IMG/VR virus record: IMGVR_UViG_2537561930_000012
Direction: 5' to 3' (one strand)
From: a virus
Taxonomy: Duplodnaviria > Heunggongvirae > Uroviricota > Caudoviricetes
Length of the DNA: 33,214 nt
Of the stretch, positions 2,631-29,258 are shown one piece after another. The stretch's first letter is position 1. Each line of letters begins with the position of its first letter. A program made the translations under genes and the position numbers. Below the pieces are notes generated by a model. The model had not been told where the DNA came from and ran no database searches. It was given only the letters and a program-made list of their open reading frames with translations.

Positions 2631-2705
<75 letters not shown>

Positions 2706-2912
2706 GTTAGAGTCTTTCAGTCTGCGATGATGGGAAATCCCGGAGTGACTGAAAGACGTTTAAGTTATGAATGATCGCTTTTTTTTGCAAAATTGCTGTG
2801 CAGAAATACTAACCTTCGGGCAGGCGATCATTCATAAGCACTCTGCTTTTATTCCGATTAACTGTGGGTGGTTTGTTGGATAGAGTGCTTTCCTTACTGT
2901 ATATATTGTTTC

Positions 2913-2938
2913 GCCCGCTTTTGCGGGCTTTTCTTTTC
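2913..2938 (+). terminator. Intrinsic terminator-like hairpin upstream of the holin gene
   Basis: gcccgc-tttt-gcgggc hairpin followed by TTTTCTTTTC. Confidence 0.45.
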
Positions 2939-2997
2939 AAATCCCTTTCATTTCTCAGTGTAAAACTACGCCATCCGTTATTTGCGGAGGTGAGGCT

Positions 2998-3213
2998 ATG
3001 AAATCCATGGACAAAATTTCAACGGGCATTGCCTATGGCACCTCCGCAGGCAGTGCTGGCTACTGGTTTTTACAGTGGCTTGATCAGGTCAGTCCGTCAC
3101 AGTGGGCTGCGATTGGTGTACTGGGGAGTCTGGTTCTGGGCTTCCTGACTTATCTGACAAATCTGTACTTCAAAATCAGAGAAGACAAGCGTAAGGCTGC
3201 ACGGGGAGAGTAA
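2998..3213 (+). CDS. Class II holin, phage 21 S21-type pinholin, with dual-start motif (Met1/Met4)
   Basis: 71-aa [56 protein letters not shown]...; two TM segments; strong SD GGAGGTGAGG upstream. Confidence 0.85.
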
Positions 3214-3217
3214 TTCA

Positions 3218-3568
3218 ATGACTCAAAACTATGAACTGATTGTGAAAGGGATCCGCAATTTTGAGAATAAAGTTACGGTAACTTTAGCGTTACGGGACAA
3301 AAAACGCTTTGACGGTGAAATTTTTGACCTGGACATCTCGCTGGACCGTGTTGAAGGTGCCGCGCTGGAGTTTTATGAGGCAGCAGCCAGAATGAGCATC
3401 AGACAGGTCTTCCTGGATGTTGCTGCCGGGTTATGTGAAGGGGATGAGCAGTCGCCGGAAAAGCGCCCCGTAATTTTAGAGGCGCAGAATGTATGGATAA
3501 CCTACAAAGGAAAGCTACCGGGAAGAATTACTGGTTCTCTGAAGACTCCTCCGGAATCACAACCTTAA
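3218..3568 (+). CDS. DUF1327-family protein (YdfR-like) between holin and endolysin
   Basis: 116-aa ORF in the same position as ydfR in E. coli cryptic lambdoid prophages. Confidence 0.65.
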   Translation: MTQNYELIVKGIRNFENKVTVTLALRDKKRFDGEIFDLDISLDRVEGAALEFYEAAARMSIRQVFLDVAAGLCEGDEQSPEKRPVILEAQNVWITYKGKLPGRITGSLKTPPESQP

Positions 3569-3631
3569 GTCACTGACCGGAACAGATAAACCTGTCCGTG
3601 GGCAGAAACCGATAAATCCTGATAAATATCC

Positions 3632-4165
3632 ATGAACGCAAAAATCAGATACGGCCTGTCGGCTGCCGTTTTGGCACTGATTGCCGTCGGTGCGCCCGCG
3701 CCTGATATTCTCGACCAGTTTCTGGATGAAAAAGAAGGTAACCACACAACGGCATACCGCGATGGGTCCGGCATCTGGACCATCTGTCGGGGTGCCACGA
3801 TGGTGGATGGAAAACCCGTTTTTCCCGGTATGAAACTGTCGAAGGAAAAATGCGACCAGGTCAACGCCATTGAGCGTGATAAGGCGCTGGCATGGGTGGA
3901 GCGCAATATTAAAGTACCACTGACCGAACCACAAAAAGCGGGTATAGCGTCATTTTGTCCCTATAACATTGGCCCCGGTAAGTGTTTCCCGTCGACGTTT
4001 TATAAGCGGCTGAATGCCGGTGATCGTAAGGGTGCATGCGAGGCGATTCGCTGGTGGATAAAAGATGGTGGGCGCGATTGCCGCATACGTTCAAATAACT
4101 GCTATGGACAGGTTATTCGCCGTGACCAGGAAGCGGCACTGGTGTGCTGGGGTATCGACAGCTAG
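3632..4165 (+). CDS. SAR endolysin (phage lysozyme, GH24, RrrD/R21-like)
   Basis: 177-aa ORF; N-terminal Ala/Gly-rich signal-anchor-release segment (LSAAVLALIAVGAPAP); catalytic E-x8-D-x5-T motif (EGNHTTAYRDGSGIWT). Confidence 0.85.
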   Translation: MNAKIRYGLSAAVLALIAVGAPAPDILDQFLDEKEGNHTTAYRDGSGIWTICRGATMVDGKPVFPGMKLSKEKCDQVNAIERDKALAWVERNIKVPLTEPQKAGIASFCPYNIGPGKCFPSTFYKRLNAGDRKGACEAIRWWIKDGGRDCRIRSNNCYGQVIRRDQEAALVCWGIDS

Positions 4166-4364
4166 CAGAATATTTTGCTGAAAAATGGCGTGTGCTCCCG
4201 CGAGCGGATAACACGAAATCCTGCAAACTGGCAAAAGGTAAGTGAATAAAAGTAAAACCCCGGCTGGGGGAACAGTCCGGGGTTGCATTTTGACAAATCA
4301 GACATGGATATAATTCATGCACGTAAAGGATAACAATAAAACCTTTCTGAGTATAGGGTGCAGT

Positions 4365-4469
4365 ATGACACCTAAAGCAGCAAATATTGCCGGAATTATT
4401 CTTGCATTATCGGCAATGATCGGGGCAATTGGTTTTGCGGTTGCAGCGATAGCATATGTTTGTAGATAA
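4365..4469 (+). CDS. Hypothetical small hydrophobic peptide (34 aa, single predicted TM helix)
   Basis: ATG ORF MTPKAANIAGIILALSAMIGAIGFAVAAIAYVCR in the 700-bp endolysin-Rz gap; not in the ORF track (below its length cutoff). Confidence 0.3.
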   Translation: MTPKAANIAGIILALSAMIGAIGFAVAAIAYVCR

Positions 4470-4599
4470 GACAGAAAATACGGCGAATCTCTGCCTTATC
4501 CGGGCGGTGGCTTTTGCCATTAAGTGGGTGGCGGTTGGCATCGCCGTGTCTCCGATGCTGTATGGGCTGGCAAAATTGATTGTTGCTCTGAAATCGTGA
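4456..4599 (+). CDS. Hypothetical small hydrophobic peptide (47 aa from ATG, 30 aa from internal GTG at 4507), paralogous to the 4780-4866 ORF
   Basis: MFVDKTENTANLCLIRAVAFAIKWVAVGIAVSPMLYGLAKLIVALKS; shares the motif R-A-x-A-F-A-I-(K/R)-x-V-A-V with the next small ORF at DNA and protein level. Confidence 0.3.
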   Translation: MFVDKTENTANLCLIRAVAFAIKWVAVGIAVSPMLYGLAKLIVALKS

Positions 4600-4779
4600 G
4601 TGGTGATGGGGGTCATGAGGGACATGGCAACTGATGATAAAAGCAGAAACAACTTCGCAGGGTGCTGACGATGCCGCAAAAATCATCGCGGTATGCCGGG
4701 GCATCAGACATATACTGACGCCAGTTGCATGGATTATTTGTACTGCACTGGTTGCATACACAACAATTTATTTAAACAG

Positions 4780-4866
4780 ATGAGTGCTGATTTTATTCGG
4801 GCAACGGCCTTTGCAATTCGCCTTGTGGCGGTCGCTGTTCTGGTCTGGGCAATCCGTTGGTGGTGA
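4780..4866 (+). CDS. Hypothetical small hydrophobic peptide (28 aa), paralogous to the 4456-4599 ORF; stop abuts the Rz start
   Basis: MSADFIRATAFAIRLVAVAVLVWAIRWW; stop TGA at 4864-4866 lies one base before the Rz ATG at 4868. Confidence 0.3.
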   Translation: MSADFIRATAFAIRLVAVAVLVWAIRWW

Positions 4867-4867
4867 T

Positions 4868-5335
4868 ATGAACCGTGTTCTGTATGTAGTGATTGCTATG
4901 CTGCTGGTGGCCTGTGTTGTGCTTAGTCTGGGGCTGAATCATTACCGTGATAACGCCATCGCCGACAAAGAACAGCGTGATAAAAAAGTCAGTGAGCTGA
5001 AGCAGGCGACCGCCACCATCGCTGACATGCAGCAGCGTCAGCGTGATGTTGCTGCGATCGATGCAAAATACACGAAGGAGTTAGCCGATGCGAAAACTGA
5101 AAATGAAACTCTGCGCGCTGATGTTGCCGCTGGTCGTAAGCGCCTGCGGGTCAATGCCAGTTGCTCCGCAGCCGTGCGTGAAGCCACCGGACCCACCAGC
5201 ATGGATAATGCAACCAGCCCCCGACTGGCAGACACCGCTGAACGGGATTATTTCACCCTCAGAGAACGGTTGATGACGATGCAGAAGCAACTGGAAGGGG
5301 CGCAGGAATATATCCGCACCCAGCGCATTAAGTAG
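4868..5335 (+). CDS. Rz: Spanin inner-membrane subunit Rz (i-spanin)
   Basis: 155-aa ORF from ATG 4868 (track ORF 4784-5335 is the same frame); N-terminal TM helix then coiled-coil-like charged region; Rz1 embedded in another frame. Confidence 0.8.
   Translation: MNRVLYVVIAMLLVACVVLSLGLNHYRDNAIADKEQRDKKVSELKQATATIADMQQRQRDVAAIDAKYTKELADAKTENETLRADVAAGRKRLRVNASCSAAVREATGPTSMDNATSPRLADTAERDYFTLRERLMTMQKQLEGAQEYIRTQRIK
5088..5273 (+). CDS. Rz1: Spanin outer-membrane lipoprotein Rz1 (o-spanin), embedded within Rz
   Basis: 61-aa ORF with lipobox LVVSAC and Pro-rich mature region (CVKPPDPPAWIMQPAPDWQTPLNGII). Confidence 0.8.
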   Translation: MRKLKMKLCALMLPLVVSACGSMPVAPQPCVKPPDPPAWIMQPAPDWQTPLNGIISPSENG

Positions 5336-5356
5336 CTGGAGAAAAAACACGAATCT

Positions 5357-5719
5357 GTGGTTTTTACTGAGCGCGGTGTACACGGTGGAACATATGGCGG
5401 GAAGTTTGTTGCTTATGATTATGCAGCATGGCTAAACCCCGGATTTAAATATGCAGCCTATAAAGTCCTGGATGACTACTTCACCGGAGAACTTCAGCAT
5501 CGCAACAGCTTAAGTGCGCAGCTCAATATGAAGTGTCATGAGTTTGATCAGAAAAAAGATATGGCGAGCTTCTGTGGACAAGGGCTGGCGGCATGGCGCT
5601 ATACGAAGCCAGTGTTGGTCGCTGAGATTAACTCCCTGGCTAACCAGCTGCAGATAACGATCCCCGGGCTGTCCGGTATTTGCCGGTATGAAATTACCGG
5701 AAGGCGCGGTCGTTACTGA
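5357..5719 (+). CDS. Hypothetical protein with KilA-N-like motif; probably an N-terminally truncated remnant
   Basis: 120-aa ORF (GTG start) with GTYGGKFVAYDYAAWLNPGF resembling the KilA-N core; frame is closed just upstream by the Rz stop. Confidence 0.3.
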   Translation: MVFTERGVHGGTYGGKFVAYDYAAWLNPGFKYAAYKVLDDYFTGELQHRNSLSAQLNMKCHEFDQKKDMASFCGQGLAAWRYTKPVLVAEINSLANQLQITIPGLSGICRYEITGRRGRY

Positions 5720-6182
5720 GTAACAGCAGGCATTACAGCAGCCCTTCACTGAGGGGCTGCGATAATGTGAGGAATAAAAAACCGGCAGGGGAAATCCATT
5801 GAAGATTTGCCGGTGGCAAAAGATGGCCATGCTTTTAACCTTAGTAGCAGAGTTACGGAGTTCAACAACGACCGTCGCCGTTATCTTGCTGAAAGGCGTT
5901 TCAATGATTTTCATCAATTTATTCATCAGCAATGGTGATAATCACTCTCATTTTGGCGGGTCCTTCCGGTGGGGTGGCCTGCCACGGGGCGGGAGCGTCG
6001 CGGAAAAAGGCTAGTTTTTGCATTTCCATGGTGGCGGCAGCATGTTTGGTAATTTATTGATAATTAAAAGTTATTTCTCTTTTCAGCTGTACAATATTTT
6101 TTTCTCCCTGTCATTAGACTCGTTTGCAATTAATTGAAATATATAAATAAACCTGATTTTCACCTGCCAGATGGAGTTGCTT

Positions 6183-6710
6183 ATGTCAAATGTGAGCGGG
6201 ATCGGTGATGCTTATTACTGGAGTGTTTTTAAAATCGCCGAGGCCTTTGGGCTTCACCGGGACACAGTAAAAAAACGGCTCCTCGCGGCCAACACTCCTG
6301 TGGCTGCGACTGTCAGGGGGAACCCCGTTTACGCCCTGCAGCATGTCGGGCCTGCCCTGTTTAGTGTGAAGCATGAGGCAGCAGACTCTGTTCATGATCC
6401 ATCCCGTATGGAGCCGAAAGAGAGAAAGGACTGGTACCAGTCGGAAAATGAAAGGATCAAGTTGGAAAAGGAGCAGCGAAAACTCATCCCCGTTGATGAA
6501 GTAGTCATCGTCTATTCGTCCATGAGAAAGGCTGTCGTCCAGGTTCTGGAGACAATTCCGGATGTTCTTGAACGCGATTGCGCCCTGACTCCTCAGGCCG
6601 TTGGCGTTGTACAGCAGGCCATTGATGACCTGCGATACACTCTTCAGGAAAAATCCTACGAGGCTTGTGCTGCTGAATTAATTCCTGATGAGGAAGGAGA
6701 GAGTCTCTAG
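6183..6710 (+). CDS. Terminase small subunit (Nu1-like, N-terminal HTH)
   Basis: ORF 6171-6710; ATG 6183 has better SD spacing (GGAG at 6173-6176); immediately upstream of the large terminase. Confidence 0.65.
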   Translation: MSNVSGIGDAYYWSVFKIAEAFGLHRDTVKKRLLAANTPVAATVRGNPVYALQHVGPALFSVKHEAADSVHDPSRMEPKERKDWYQSENERIKLEKEQRKLIPVDEVVIVYSSMRKAVVQVLETIPDVLERDCALTPQAVGVVQQAIDDLRYTLQEKSYEACAAELIPDEEGESL

Positions 6711-28677: not shown

Positions 28678-29258
28678 TGGCATTCAGAATGAGTGAACAA
28701 GCACGGACCATAAAAATTTATAATCTGCTGGCCGGAACTAATGAATTTATTGGTGAAGGTGATGCATATATTCCGCCTCATACAGGTCTGCCAGCAAACA
28801 GTACCGACATTGCACCGCCAGATATTCCAGCTGGCTTCGTGGCTGTTTTCAACAGTGATGAGTTATCGTGGCATCTCGTTGAAGATCATCGGGGTAAAAC
28901 GGTTTATGACGTGGCTTCCGGCGACGCGTTATTTATTTCTGAACTCGGCTCATTACCGGAAAATGTCACCTGGTTATCCCCGGAAGGGGAGTTTCAGAAG
29001 TGGAACGGCACAGCCTGGGTGAAAGATGCAGAAGCAGAAAAACTATTCCGGATCCGGGAGGCGGAAGAAACAAAAAACAGCCTGATGCAGGCAGCGAATG
29101 AGCATATTGCGCCACTTCAGGATGCTGTAGATCTGGAAATCGCAATGGAGGAAGAAAACTCGTTGCTGGAAGCCTGGAAAAAGTATCGGGTGTTGCTGAA
29201 CCGTGTTAATACAACAACTGCACCGGATATTGAATGGCCAGTAGCACCTATAGGGTAA
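28677..29258 (+). CDS. tfa: Tail fibre assembly protein Tfa
   Basis: 193-aa ORF overlapping stf stop (TAATG); conserved C-terminus ...[31 protein letters not shown]. Confidence 0.85.

Follow-up and report, generated by a model that had tools for sequence, protein, structure and literature searches.

Four very small membrane-protein genes occupy the interval between endolysin and Rz in a lambdoid prophage of Escherichia coli

The DNA analyzed here, IMG/VR virus record IMGVR_UViG_2537561930_000012 (33,214 nt over its whole stretch, hereafter the window), carries the late operon of an Escherichia coli lambdoid prophage, and this study concerns the 702-nt spacer (4166-4867) lying between its endolysin gene R (3632..4165, + strand; T4-lysozyme-type, Pfam PF00959, E 1.4e-24) and the gene for the inner-membrane spanin (i-spanin) Rz (4868..5335, + strand; Pfam PF03245, E 2.7e-49; phrog_13). 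In the chromosome of E. coli 1EC213 the spacer recurs with 100% identity, and about 30 other complete E. coli genomes have a near-identical sequence. The spacer carries four small open reading frames (ORFs) on the + strand, here named A, B, C and D; the first-pass annotation of this DNA had reported an insert of about 700 nt with at least three such ORFs, all exact in their limits, but had missed the fourth, C. We hold this anatomy with high confidence. Loci for comparison (given L-numbers, e.g., L087 or L142) were collected around relatives of Rz, A, B and C in IMG/VR, E. coli genomes and phage records, so that the sample is biased toward these probes.

Gene A (4317..4469, + strand; 50 aa, MHVKDNNKTFLSIGCSMTPKAANIAGIILALSAMIGAIGFAVAAIAYVCR; phrog_12997, E 6e-7) is predicted to form one Gly/Ala-rich transmembrane helix. 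An internal start at 4365 would give an alternative form of 34 aa, but 4317 is most likely the true start, because the match to PHROG 12997 improves with the long form (E 6e-7 vs. 7e-5) and because homologues 74-84% identical retain the N-terminal NKTFLxxGGxM. Upstream of A the window reads GGATA, where related copies (L142-L145) have a GGAGA ribosome-binding site. Gene B (4456..4599, + strand; 47 aa; phrog_1115, E 4e-19), whose start overlaps the end of A by 14 nt, is the B-type member of a family that also includes D; its core, RAxAFAIKWVAVGIAVSPMLYGLAKLIVALKS, is near-invariant across E. coli and Salmonella, and its relatives fall into 88 protein clusters, every one hypothetical and nearly all from these two hosts. 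Gene C (4634..4783, + strand; 49 aa, MIKAETTSQGADDAAKIIAVCRGIRHILTPVAWIICTALVAYTTIYLNR) is predicted to be tail-anchored: 30 conserved N-terminal residues, which in the family read KAETTxQGADxAAKIIAxCRGxRHxLTPxAW, precede a C-terminal membrane helix of variable sequence. C is usually a protein of 65 aa; in the window copy the first 16 codons of this form are absent, and the start is the internal Met17 of the family. The AlphaFold2 model of C is one continuous helix (residues 8-48, mean predicted local distance difference test score 78.5) and thus offers no fold to search with; a C-family profile run against 1.84 billion representative proteins returned 10 small clusters, none fused to a known domain, and the 29 protein clusters of C relatives are all hypothetical and come from E. 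coli and Salmonella. Gene D (4780..4866, + strand; 28 aa, MSADFIRATAFAIRLVAVAVLVWAIRWW; phrog_4493, E 2.4e-6), the D-type member of the B/D family, has its start overlapped by the stop codon of C (ATGA). RefSeq records only B (WP_000496062.1) and D (WP_085950722.1), both as "hypothetical protein," and A and C are unannotated there.

The best 19-residue Kyte-Doolittle windows score 2.54 for A, 2.04 for B, 1.86 for C and 1.97 for D, and a score of at least 1.6 is reached by just 11.8% of the stop-to-stop segments of at least 28 aa in the window. The products of A-D are very small, single-helix membrane proteins, and the membrane character earlier assigned to each named ORF agrees with these values, which all lie above the usual threshold (1.86-2.54).

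To judge coding, each ORF was compared with diverged homologues in other loci by the proportions of synonymous (pS) and non-synonymous (pN) differences and by codon position. Against its most distant relatives C differs at 42-46 of 147 nt, 32-34 of these at codon position 3, for instance 32 of 43; its non-synonymous divergence (dN) is about 0.12 (0.11-0.16) with synonymous sites saturated, and the two alternative frames show the opposite pattern. Values for A against L087 were pS 0.52 and pN 0.07, for the shared C-terminal part of B against L003 pS 0.45 and pN 0.06, and for D against L087 and L005 pS 0.53-0.58 and pN 0.12-0.14. Across A-D the pN/pS ratio is about 0.1-0.25, amino-acid conservation spans the whole length of the proteins, and no ORF-disrupting variant was found among the window-type copies, in which the sole indel falls in the non-coding hairpin tail. 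The excess of third-position changes and the low pN relative to pS indicate that A-D are protein-coding genes under purifying selection.

The content of the interval varies widely among prophages. BLASTN divides the spacer into five parts: 4166-4262, a leader; 4263-4503, comprising a hairpin, A and the 5' end of B and specific to the window type; 4504-4599, the B core; 4600-4770, C; and 4771-4867, D. Filled R-Rz spacers come in six lengths (297, 335, 487, 604, 642, and 702 nt), and an empty state also exists (L050, L051, L084, L086), in which, beside a near-identical holin and YdfR, an R about 98% identical overlaps Rz by 4 nt. In L050 the holin, YdfR and R are near-identical to those of the window (R 97.7%) and the R stop overlaps the Rz start as GTGA; as a near-identical cassette lacking the insert exists, A-D are accessory and dispensable for the core lysis cassette. 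The lambdoid loci show the orders R-Rz, R-F-Rz, R-D-Rz, R-B-E-Rz (the commonest), R-B-D-Rz, R-F2-E-B-D-Rz and, in the window, R-A-B-C-D-Rz, where E (phrog_4906) and F (phrog_6632) are further cassette families. Endolysins of the M15 peptidase type are followed by B, A-B, A-B-E, C-D, C-B or C-B-E, and those of glycoside hydrolase family 108 (GH108) by B, B-E, A-B, A-D or B-C-D, in either case before the gene of a 60-aa lipoprotein (phrog_7528). The usual site of a cassette is thus directly after the endolysin gene and before Rz/Rz1 or the lipoprotein gene, and its last gene always ends 1-8 nt before the following start. These same cassettes occur with and without YdfR, and with P21-type holins as well as holins of phrog_198 and phrog_217. 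The families A, B/D, C, E, and F are shuffled among prophages of E. coli, Salmonella and Citrobacter, to which they are almost entirely restricted. In this probe-biased sample every B, D, and E observed lay behind an endolysin gene and ahead of Rz or the lipoprotein gene, except in L087, a fragment disrupted by an insertion sequence that carries D, G, and A and has no endolysin gene in the stretch examined. The statement that R and Rz are usually adjacent, from which the first-pass annotation set out, needs qualifying, as filled spacers are common in E. coli prophages resembling those that encode Shiga toxin (Stx): 1812 complete E. coli genomes out of 5426 have matches to parts of the spacer, and in phage 933W the place is taken by ant and a small ORF (R-ant-E-Rz). 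The same survey, proposed as a check on the insert, yielded related prophages of both kinds, the four empty loci named above and the filled types elsewhere.

Some further observations concern the partners of these cassettes. The lipoprotein (MTRKHWTHRMPRTAAKWALVAILVPFLLVGC..., 60-65 aa) has a lipobox LVGC and a mature part of about 30 aa that contains three Cys; its gene lies at 2755-2937 in L142, 2925-3122 in L143, 1913-2110 in L089 and 2735-2914 in L112, stands in the place of Rz/Rz1 in M15 and GH108 cassettes, also occurs downstream of Rz in L005 and L191, and is frameshifted in L088. In L143, a locus that shares the Q-like antiterminator and late-operon setting of the window, about 2 kb of downstream sequence contained no recognizable spanin, and the lipoprotein might be an outer-membrane lysis or exclusion factor. 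In 933W (AF125520, L129) an unannotated ORF for a 44-aa membrane protein of the E family (MISDKLITLVKSLCVLVGISFLVMLVAIFFSTAWRVLTLSGLVG) lies at 3436-3570 in the ant-Rz interval and ends 8 nt before Rz. A second hot spot, receiving C, F, and A, lies between the gene of a 237-aa baseplate protein and a phrog_7986 gene in another prophage type of E. coli and Citrobacter (L090 1437-2034; L116 2249-2650; L229 3001-3340), with the same hairpin upstream.

B and D are homologous, as had been proposed. Their Smith-Waterman score is 49 against a shuffle mean of 23.2 (z = 5.7; none of 2000 shuffles as high), BLASTP gives E = 1e-4, and three PHROG families match both: phrog_1115 (B, E 4e-19), phrog_3246 (B, 8.7e-15; D, 2.3e-5) and phrog_4493 (B, 1.7e-13; D, 2.4e-6). 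A 40-nt repeat with 70% identity (4496..4535 in B and 4793..4832 in D, both + strand) encodes the common core RAxAFAI[KR]xVAV. The four genes form two bipartite modules with overlapping frames, A-B and C-D, whose second gene in each case is of the B/D family; the pairings A-B, A-D, C-B and C-D are all found. Hybrid genes with the crossover inside the shared core also exist (L142, MFVDKTENPANLCLIRAAAFAIRLVAVAVLIWAVRWW; L119, MSADFIRAVAFAIKWVAVGIAV...), and the 40-nt repeat is the likely crossover site. The conclusion that "the unit has duplicated" did not survive: B and D come with their own partners as separate modules, occur alone elsewhere, and are about 70% identical over no more than those 40 nt. 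The B-type and the D-type represent two old alleles within a single family, found separately in other phages and brought together here by recombination, through juxtaposition of cassettes and not local duplication, since the modules occur singly elsewhere and the hybrids switch type inside the core. That A-B and C-D might be copies of a duplicated two-gene unit was rejected (A vs. C similarity, z = 0.1); neither A nor C is related to B/D, nor are the two related to one another. Behind M15/GH108 endolysins the A-B module differs from the window copy by 2-3 nt in 150, and C-D behind an M15 peptidase is about 96% identical to it, which indicates that lysis cassettes with no other relationship have exchanged them recently.

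Directly after the endolysin stop lies a 97-nt leader, m1 (4166..4262, + strand), present in every filled R-Rz spacer type. It begins GCAGAATATTTTGCTGAAAAATG, is A-rich toward its 3' end, and runs into a terminator-like hairpin (4256..4293, + strand; AAAACCCCGGCTG...CAGTCCGGGGTT; -22.3 kcal/mol, z = -3.07) with a weak T-rich tail; the hairpin proper, at 4256-4284, closes the leader, and a terminator scan places the spacer terminator at 4264-4280. The leader is 83-91% identical to its counterparts in L002-L006, was collected in 20 sequence variants, occurs also in 933W, and has a related element downstream of the lipoprotein gene in M15/GH108 cassettes (L104-L113, L119). Its layout would suit a small RNA derived from a 3' untranslated region or a recombination boundary. 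A search for covarying structure in m1 supported only the terminator stem, with one compensatory pair, and Rfam, applied to the spacer including m1 at the gathering threshold and permissively (E up to 10), gave no family and nothing credible. The hairpin stem is kept in 11 of 12 spacer variants and the T-runs in most; the homologous hairpin of most spacer types runs on into TTTTGTGTTT or TTTTGTTTTT and so is a good intrinsic terminator, and homologous hairpins also lie upstream of C (L088, L089, L116) and upstream of A (L142-L145, L229, L230). A 23-codon ORF starting with GTG (4242..4313, + strand; MNKSKTP...) overlaps the hairpin and corresponds to the 5' end of F, a 72-aa ORF annotated in Stx2 phages (L004 2577-2795, MNKSKTPFVGRKRG...IRWW). 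Homology of the window to other spacers stops at 4262, and this short ORF is probably not a functional gene in the window.

At the opposite end of the spacer, the D stop TGA (4864-4866) is separated by one base from the Rz ATG, at 4868 and not 4869. The geometry suggests translational coupling, as the first-pass annotation had it. D-type genes always end ...CGT TGG TGG TGA, followed by one base and ATG, and their last codons TGG TGG TGA supply, as GGTGGTGA, the ribosome-binding site of the following gene, be it Rz or the lipoprotein gene; the duplex with the anti-Shine-Dalgarno sequence before the Rz start is worth -6.2 kcal/mol. The junction motif CGTTGGTGGTGAT recurs after B at 4595-4607, where it looks like a former junction. 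The frame running from 4784 into Rz was considered as an N-terminal extension of Rz and rejected, as differences among homologues fall at third positions of the D frame. A simple consensus scan for sigma-70-like sites on both strands of 2700-6200 found none, against 4.4 expected by chance.

Searches of the databases gave the four proteins little company. Pfam (E up to 1), NCBIfam and PADLOC returned no match for A-D, and the PHROG families matched by A, B, and D carry no functional annotation, in keeping with the earlier remark that no named lysis-cassette family fits. The PADLOC search (E up to 1), which gave no family for A, B, C, D, E or F, is weak evidence, since few exclusion proteins are covered there. 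Against PHROG the long form of C had no match and the window copy a non-significant one (E 0.11); A reached the holin family phrog_526 at E 0.04-0.06, likewise non-significant, and Pfam and PHROG placed none of A-D in a holin family. The search of GenBank phage records with A and C by tblastn returned nothing, and the B alignment and a degenerate DNA pattern searched against genome contigs gave chance matches in Clostridia only. None of the peptides appears in the supplements of ribosome profiling of E. coli Sakai. In the K-12 prophage Qin, rrrQ and rzpQ overlap, so that small-protein studies in K-12 do not cover the R-Rz slot.

The surroundings of the spacer are those of a late operon. Upstream lie genes for RusA (1060-1434) and a Q-like antiterminator (1431-2252), four tRNA genes between the antiterminator and holin genes (Met-CAT, Lys-TTT, Thr-TGT, and Gly-TCC, 2396-2705; four by ARAGORN, three by Rfam at the gathering threshold), a tR'-like terminator with a strong hairpin (2913-2928), a P21-type holin recognized by Pfam (2998-3213) and DUF1327/YdfR (3218-3568). 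The prophage small RNAs AgvB, AsxR, and Pas map upstream of the holin, none of them in the spacer. The N-terminus of R is a Gly/Ala-rich segment resembling a signal-anchor-release (SAR) sequence, and R is 91% identical to the SAR endolysin of 933W, which serves as such in PMC9239132. Rz1 (5088-5273, + strand; lipobox LVVSAC) is embedded in Rz. Directly 3' of Rz an ORF of 120 aa (5357-5719) matches only the C-terminal part of antirepressor or Rha-like regulators (ORF11CD3 domain; phrog_10441, phrog_129) and resembles a truncated Ant-type gene; in 933W ant precedes Rz and does not follow it. The small terminase subunit is encoded at 6171-6710. Far from the spacer, Rfam matches 29020-29218 over the full length of the IS009 family (RF02111, 209 bits, E 4e-51).

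On these grounds we tentatively favor the reading that A-D are late-expressed inner-membrane accessory proteins which modulate lysis independently of the holin. The genes would have no promoter of their own and would be transcribed only when Q-modified RNA polymerase reads through the hairpin, so that their products would appear late in the lytic cycle, alongside holin, endolysin and spanin. Ribosomes finishing D would re-initiate at the Rz ATG one base downstream, and D would take over the coupling role that the R stop codon has in empty cassettes, which would explain why the last cassette gene always abuts the Rz or lipoprotein gene. The peptides would insert into the inner membrane, where the B/D helix, with its embedded Lys (B K23) or Arg (D R14), would probably engage an unvarying membrane target encoded by the host, or act on membrane energization, thereby tuning the timing or the cleanness of lysis. 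A constant host target is preferred here to a particular holin because the B/D helix is near-invariant and three unrelated holin/endolysin systems are served, and the occurrence of the same peptides with different holin types argues against a holin-specific antiholin, a protein that binds its cognate holin and inhibits it.

Several observations weigh against lysis modulation. With their presence/absence variation and hypervariable content the genes look more like conflict genes than timing devices, and sampling accounts in part for the tight link of B, D, and E to lysis cassettes, since the probes were Rz, A, B, and C. The A, C, and F families also occur outside lysis cassettes, as generic cargo ("morons") would: C lies between baseplate genes of another prophage type, alone or with F-type genes (L090, L115-L126); the baseplate slot of a Citrobacter prophage (L229) holds A then C; and in one E. 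coli genome (L230) a homologue of A follows, at the prophage end and with two flanking hairpins, a DUF4376 gene taken as tail-fiber-assembly-like. The simple consensus scan could miss a real promoter, and perfect TTGACA (4290) and TATAAT (4309) hexamers stand just upstream of A, only 13 nt apart; this pair (4290-4314) is probably not a working promoter. The TATAAT results from a G-to-T change in the GGAGA ribosome-binding site of L142-L145. A literature search by phrase and by peptide string yielded no paper on the A-D peptides.

A second view is that A-D are conflict cargo, that is, moron-type inner-membrane peptides serving superinfection exclusion or neutralizing host defense effectors, for which the lysis cassette is a tolerated site; we consider this nearly as likely as lysis modulation. 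Members of A, C, and F are found in places where cargo classically sits (in the baseplate region and, behind the tail-fiber-assembly-like gene, at the prophage end), the presence/absence polymorphism, shuffling and very recent exchange between unrelated phages are typical of conflict genes, and 933W has another cargo gene, ant, in the R-Rz slot. However, with no promoter-like site and a terminator upstream, expression in the lysogen, where exclusion pays, is not indicated, PADLOC gave no match, B, D, and E follow only endolysin genes in the sample, bar the L087 fragment, and the tight translational coupling into Rz would be unusual for an autonomous moron.

Lysis modulation also has a bolder form, which we think unlikely: B/D with the partners A and C would be a new class of lysis effector, independent of holin and endolysin type, whose near-invariant helix with its basic residue binds a conserved host inner-membrane protein and so sets the lysis clock or blocks envelope repair. 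The target could be, for example, a step of envelope-precursor supply or of membrane energization, the conserved hairpin and junction sequences could be a dedicated system of cassette exchange, and the peptides and the 60-aa lipoprotein could even replace Rz/Rz1 in the M15/GH108 cassettes, in which no spanin was recognized.

A role mainly in cis appears quite unlikely. Here the ORFs would be translated spacers that hand ribosomes to the Rz or lipoprotein gene and thus set the spanin:endolysin ratio, which accords with the invariable 1-8 nt between the last ORF and the following start, with last codons that double as ribosome-binding site, with the recurrence of CGTTGGTGGTGAT and with the GTGA overlap by which Rz is coupled to R in empty cassettes. 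Yet one ORF would suffice for this task and not four, the amino-acid sequences are strongly conserved (pN/pS about 0.1-0.25, with the B core near-invariant), and A and C are also found where no coupling partner follows.

Autonomous small membrane toxins, either of the type I toxin-antitoxin sort or holin-like depolarizing peptides, are very unlikely, and of the three functions suggested by the first-pass annotation toxin-antitoxin has the least support. Size and hydrophobicity do recall the Hok, Ldr, and TisB-type toxins and small holins, and the weak, non-significant match of A to phrog_526 points the same way; nonetheless, no Pfam type I toxin or holin family matches at E up to 1, neither an antisense RNA family nor a promoter-like site was found on either strand, the genes form a co-oriented operon and not a stand-alone toxin/antisense locus, and four coupled in a row would be unprecedented. 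Recombination debris without present function, a reading we disfavor as scarcely credible, could draw on the visibly mosaic spacer, the 23-codon F-gene remnant at 4242-4313, the 5'-truncated copy of C and the weak ribosome-binding sites of A, B, and D, but is contradicted by purifying selection in all four frames, by window-type copies free of ORF-disrupting variants and by modules maintained across three cassette types.

Lysis by phages of E. coli is regarded as a solved three-step process of holin, endolysin and spanin. About a third of complete E. coli genomes nevertheless carry sequence of this spacer type between the endolysin and spanin steps, and the spacer holds conserved, selected small membrane proteins that are unstudied, those of Stx-converting phages included. 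If A-D tune lysis timing, burst size would be affected and, in Stx phages, the timing of toxin release as well; if they serve exclusion or anti-defense, conflict cargo would gain a class that is expressed late and has no promoter. The system is small, modular and directly testable, with both empty and filled cassettes of near-identical flanks available in nature. The comparison also corrects annotation, as A and C are missing from RefSeq and the 44-aa E-family ORF is unannotated in 933W.

Known systems offer partial parallels, and neither LysA of P2, the releasins, the morons nor the superinfection-exclusion genes embedded in late operons of Pseudomonas phages are sequence relatives of A-D. 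Spanins carry either a domain that crosses the periplasm, placed behind a transmembrane domain at the N terminus, or a lipoprotein signal with a lipobox; A-D have no lipobox, no extramembrane segment longer than about 30 residues and no match to the Rz PHROGs. With type I toxin-antitoxin loci the likeness ends at the small hydrophobic ORF, as a promoter, an antisense RNA and a known toxin family (Hok, Ldr, TisB, Ibs, ShoB, Zor and others) were not found. In the P2 order Y-K-lysA-lysB-lysC the antiholin gene lysA lies between the endolysin gene K and the spanin genes lysB/lysC, and lysis does not depend on its product, which has four transmembrane domains and is reported to cause a delay (PMC3091744). 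The window has the same arrangement, accessory membrane-protein genes between the end of R (4165) and the start of Rz (4868); however, LysA is one protein with four transmembrane domains and A-D are four one-helix peptides of 28-50 aa without sequence relationship to it and not tied to one holin type. The Mu releasin gp25 (DUF2730) is a membrane-tethered accessory lysis protein that acts on SAR endolysins by releasing them, and its family, which has a transmembrane domain at the N terminus plus a cytoplasmic domain of about 70 aa, is encoded within a few genes of the SAR endolysin (PMC9239132). In the window, too, a SAR-like endolysin is nearby, and C likewise looks like a short conserved domain tethered by one helix; in contrast, A-D have no Pfam match to DUF2730 and are too short for it, the helix of C is C-terminal with about 30 conserved residues, and the A-D families also accompany M15 and GH108 endolysins, which belong to other enzyme classes. 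Morons are represented in lambdoid phages by bor and lom. In a passage of PMC4104026 citing Juhala et al. (2000), a moron is additional DNA separating genes that are neighbors in related phages, and an autonomous transcription unit equipped with a promoter of its own and, behind the gene, a terminator. The A-D insert agrees with this picture in being absent from near-identical neighbors, in lying at a junction that accepts cargo (ant in 933W), in moving between unrelated phages and in its association with a terminator hairpin. It departs from it in that the hairpin lies upstream and not downstream, no promoter of consensus type was detected (perfect -35 and -10 hexamers stand only 13 nt apart at 4290-4314), the last gene is apparently coupled into Rz, and as cargo there are arrays of genes for very small membrane proteins.

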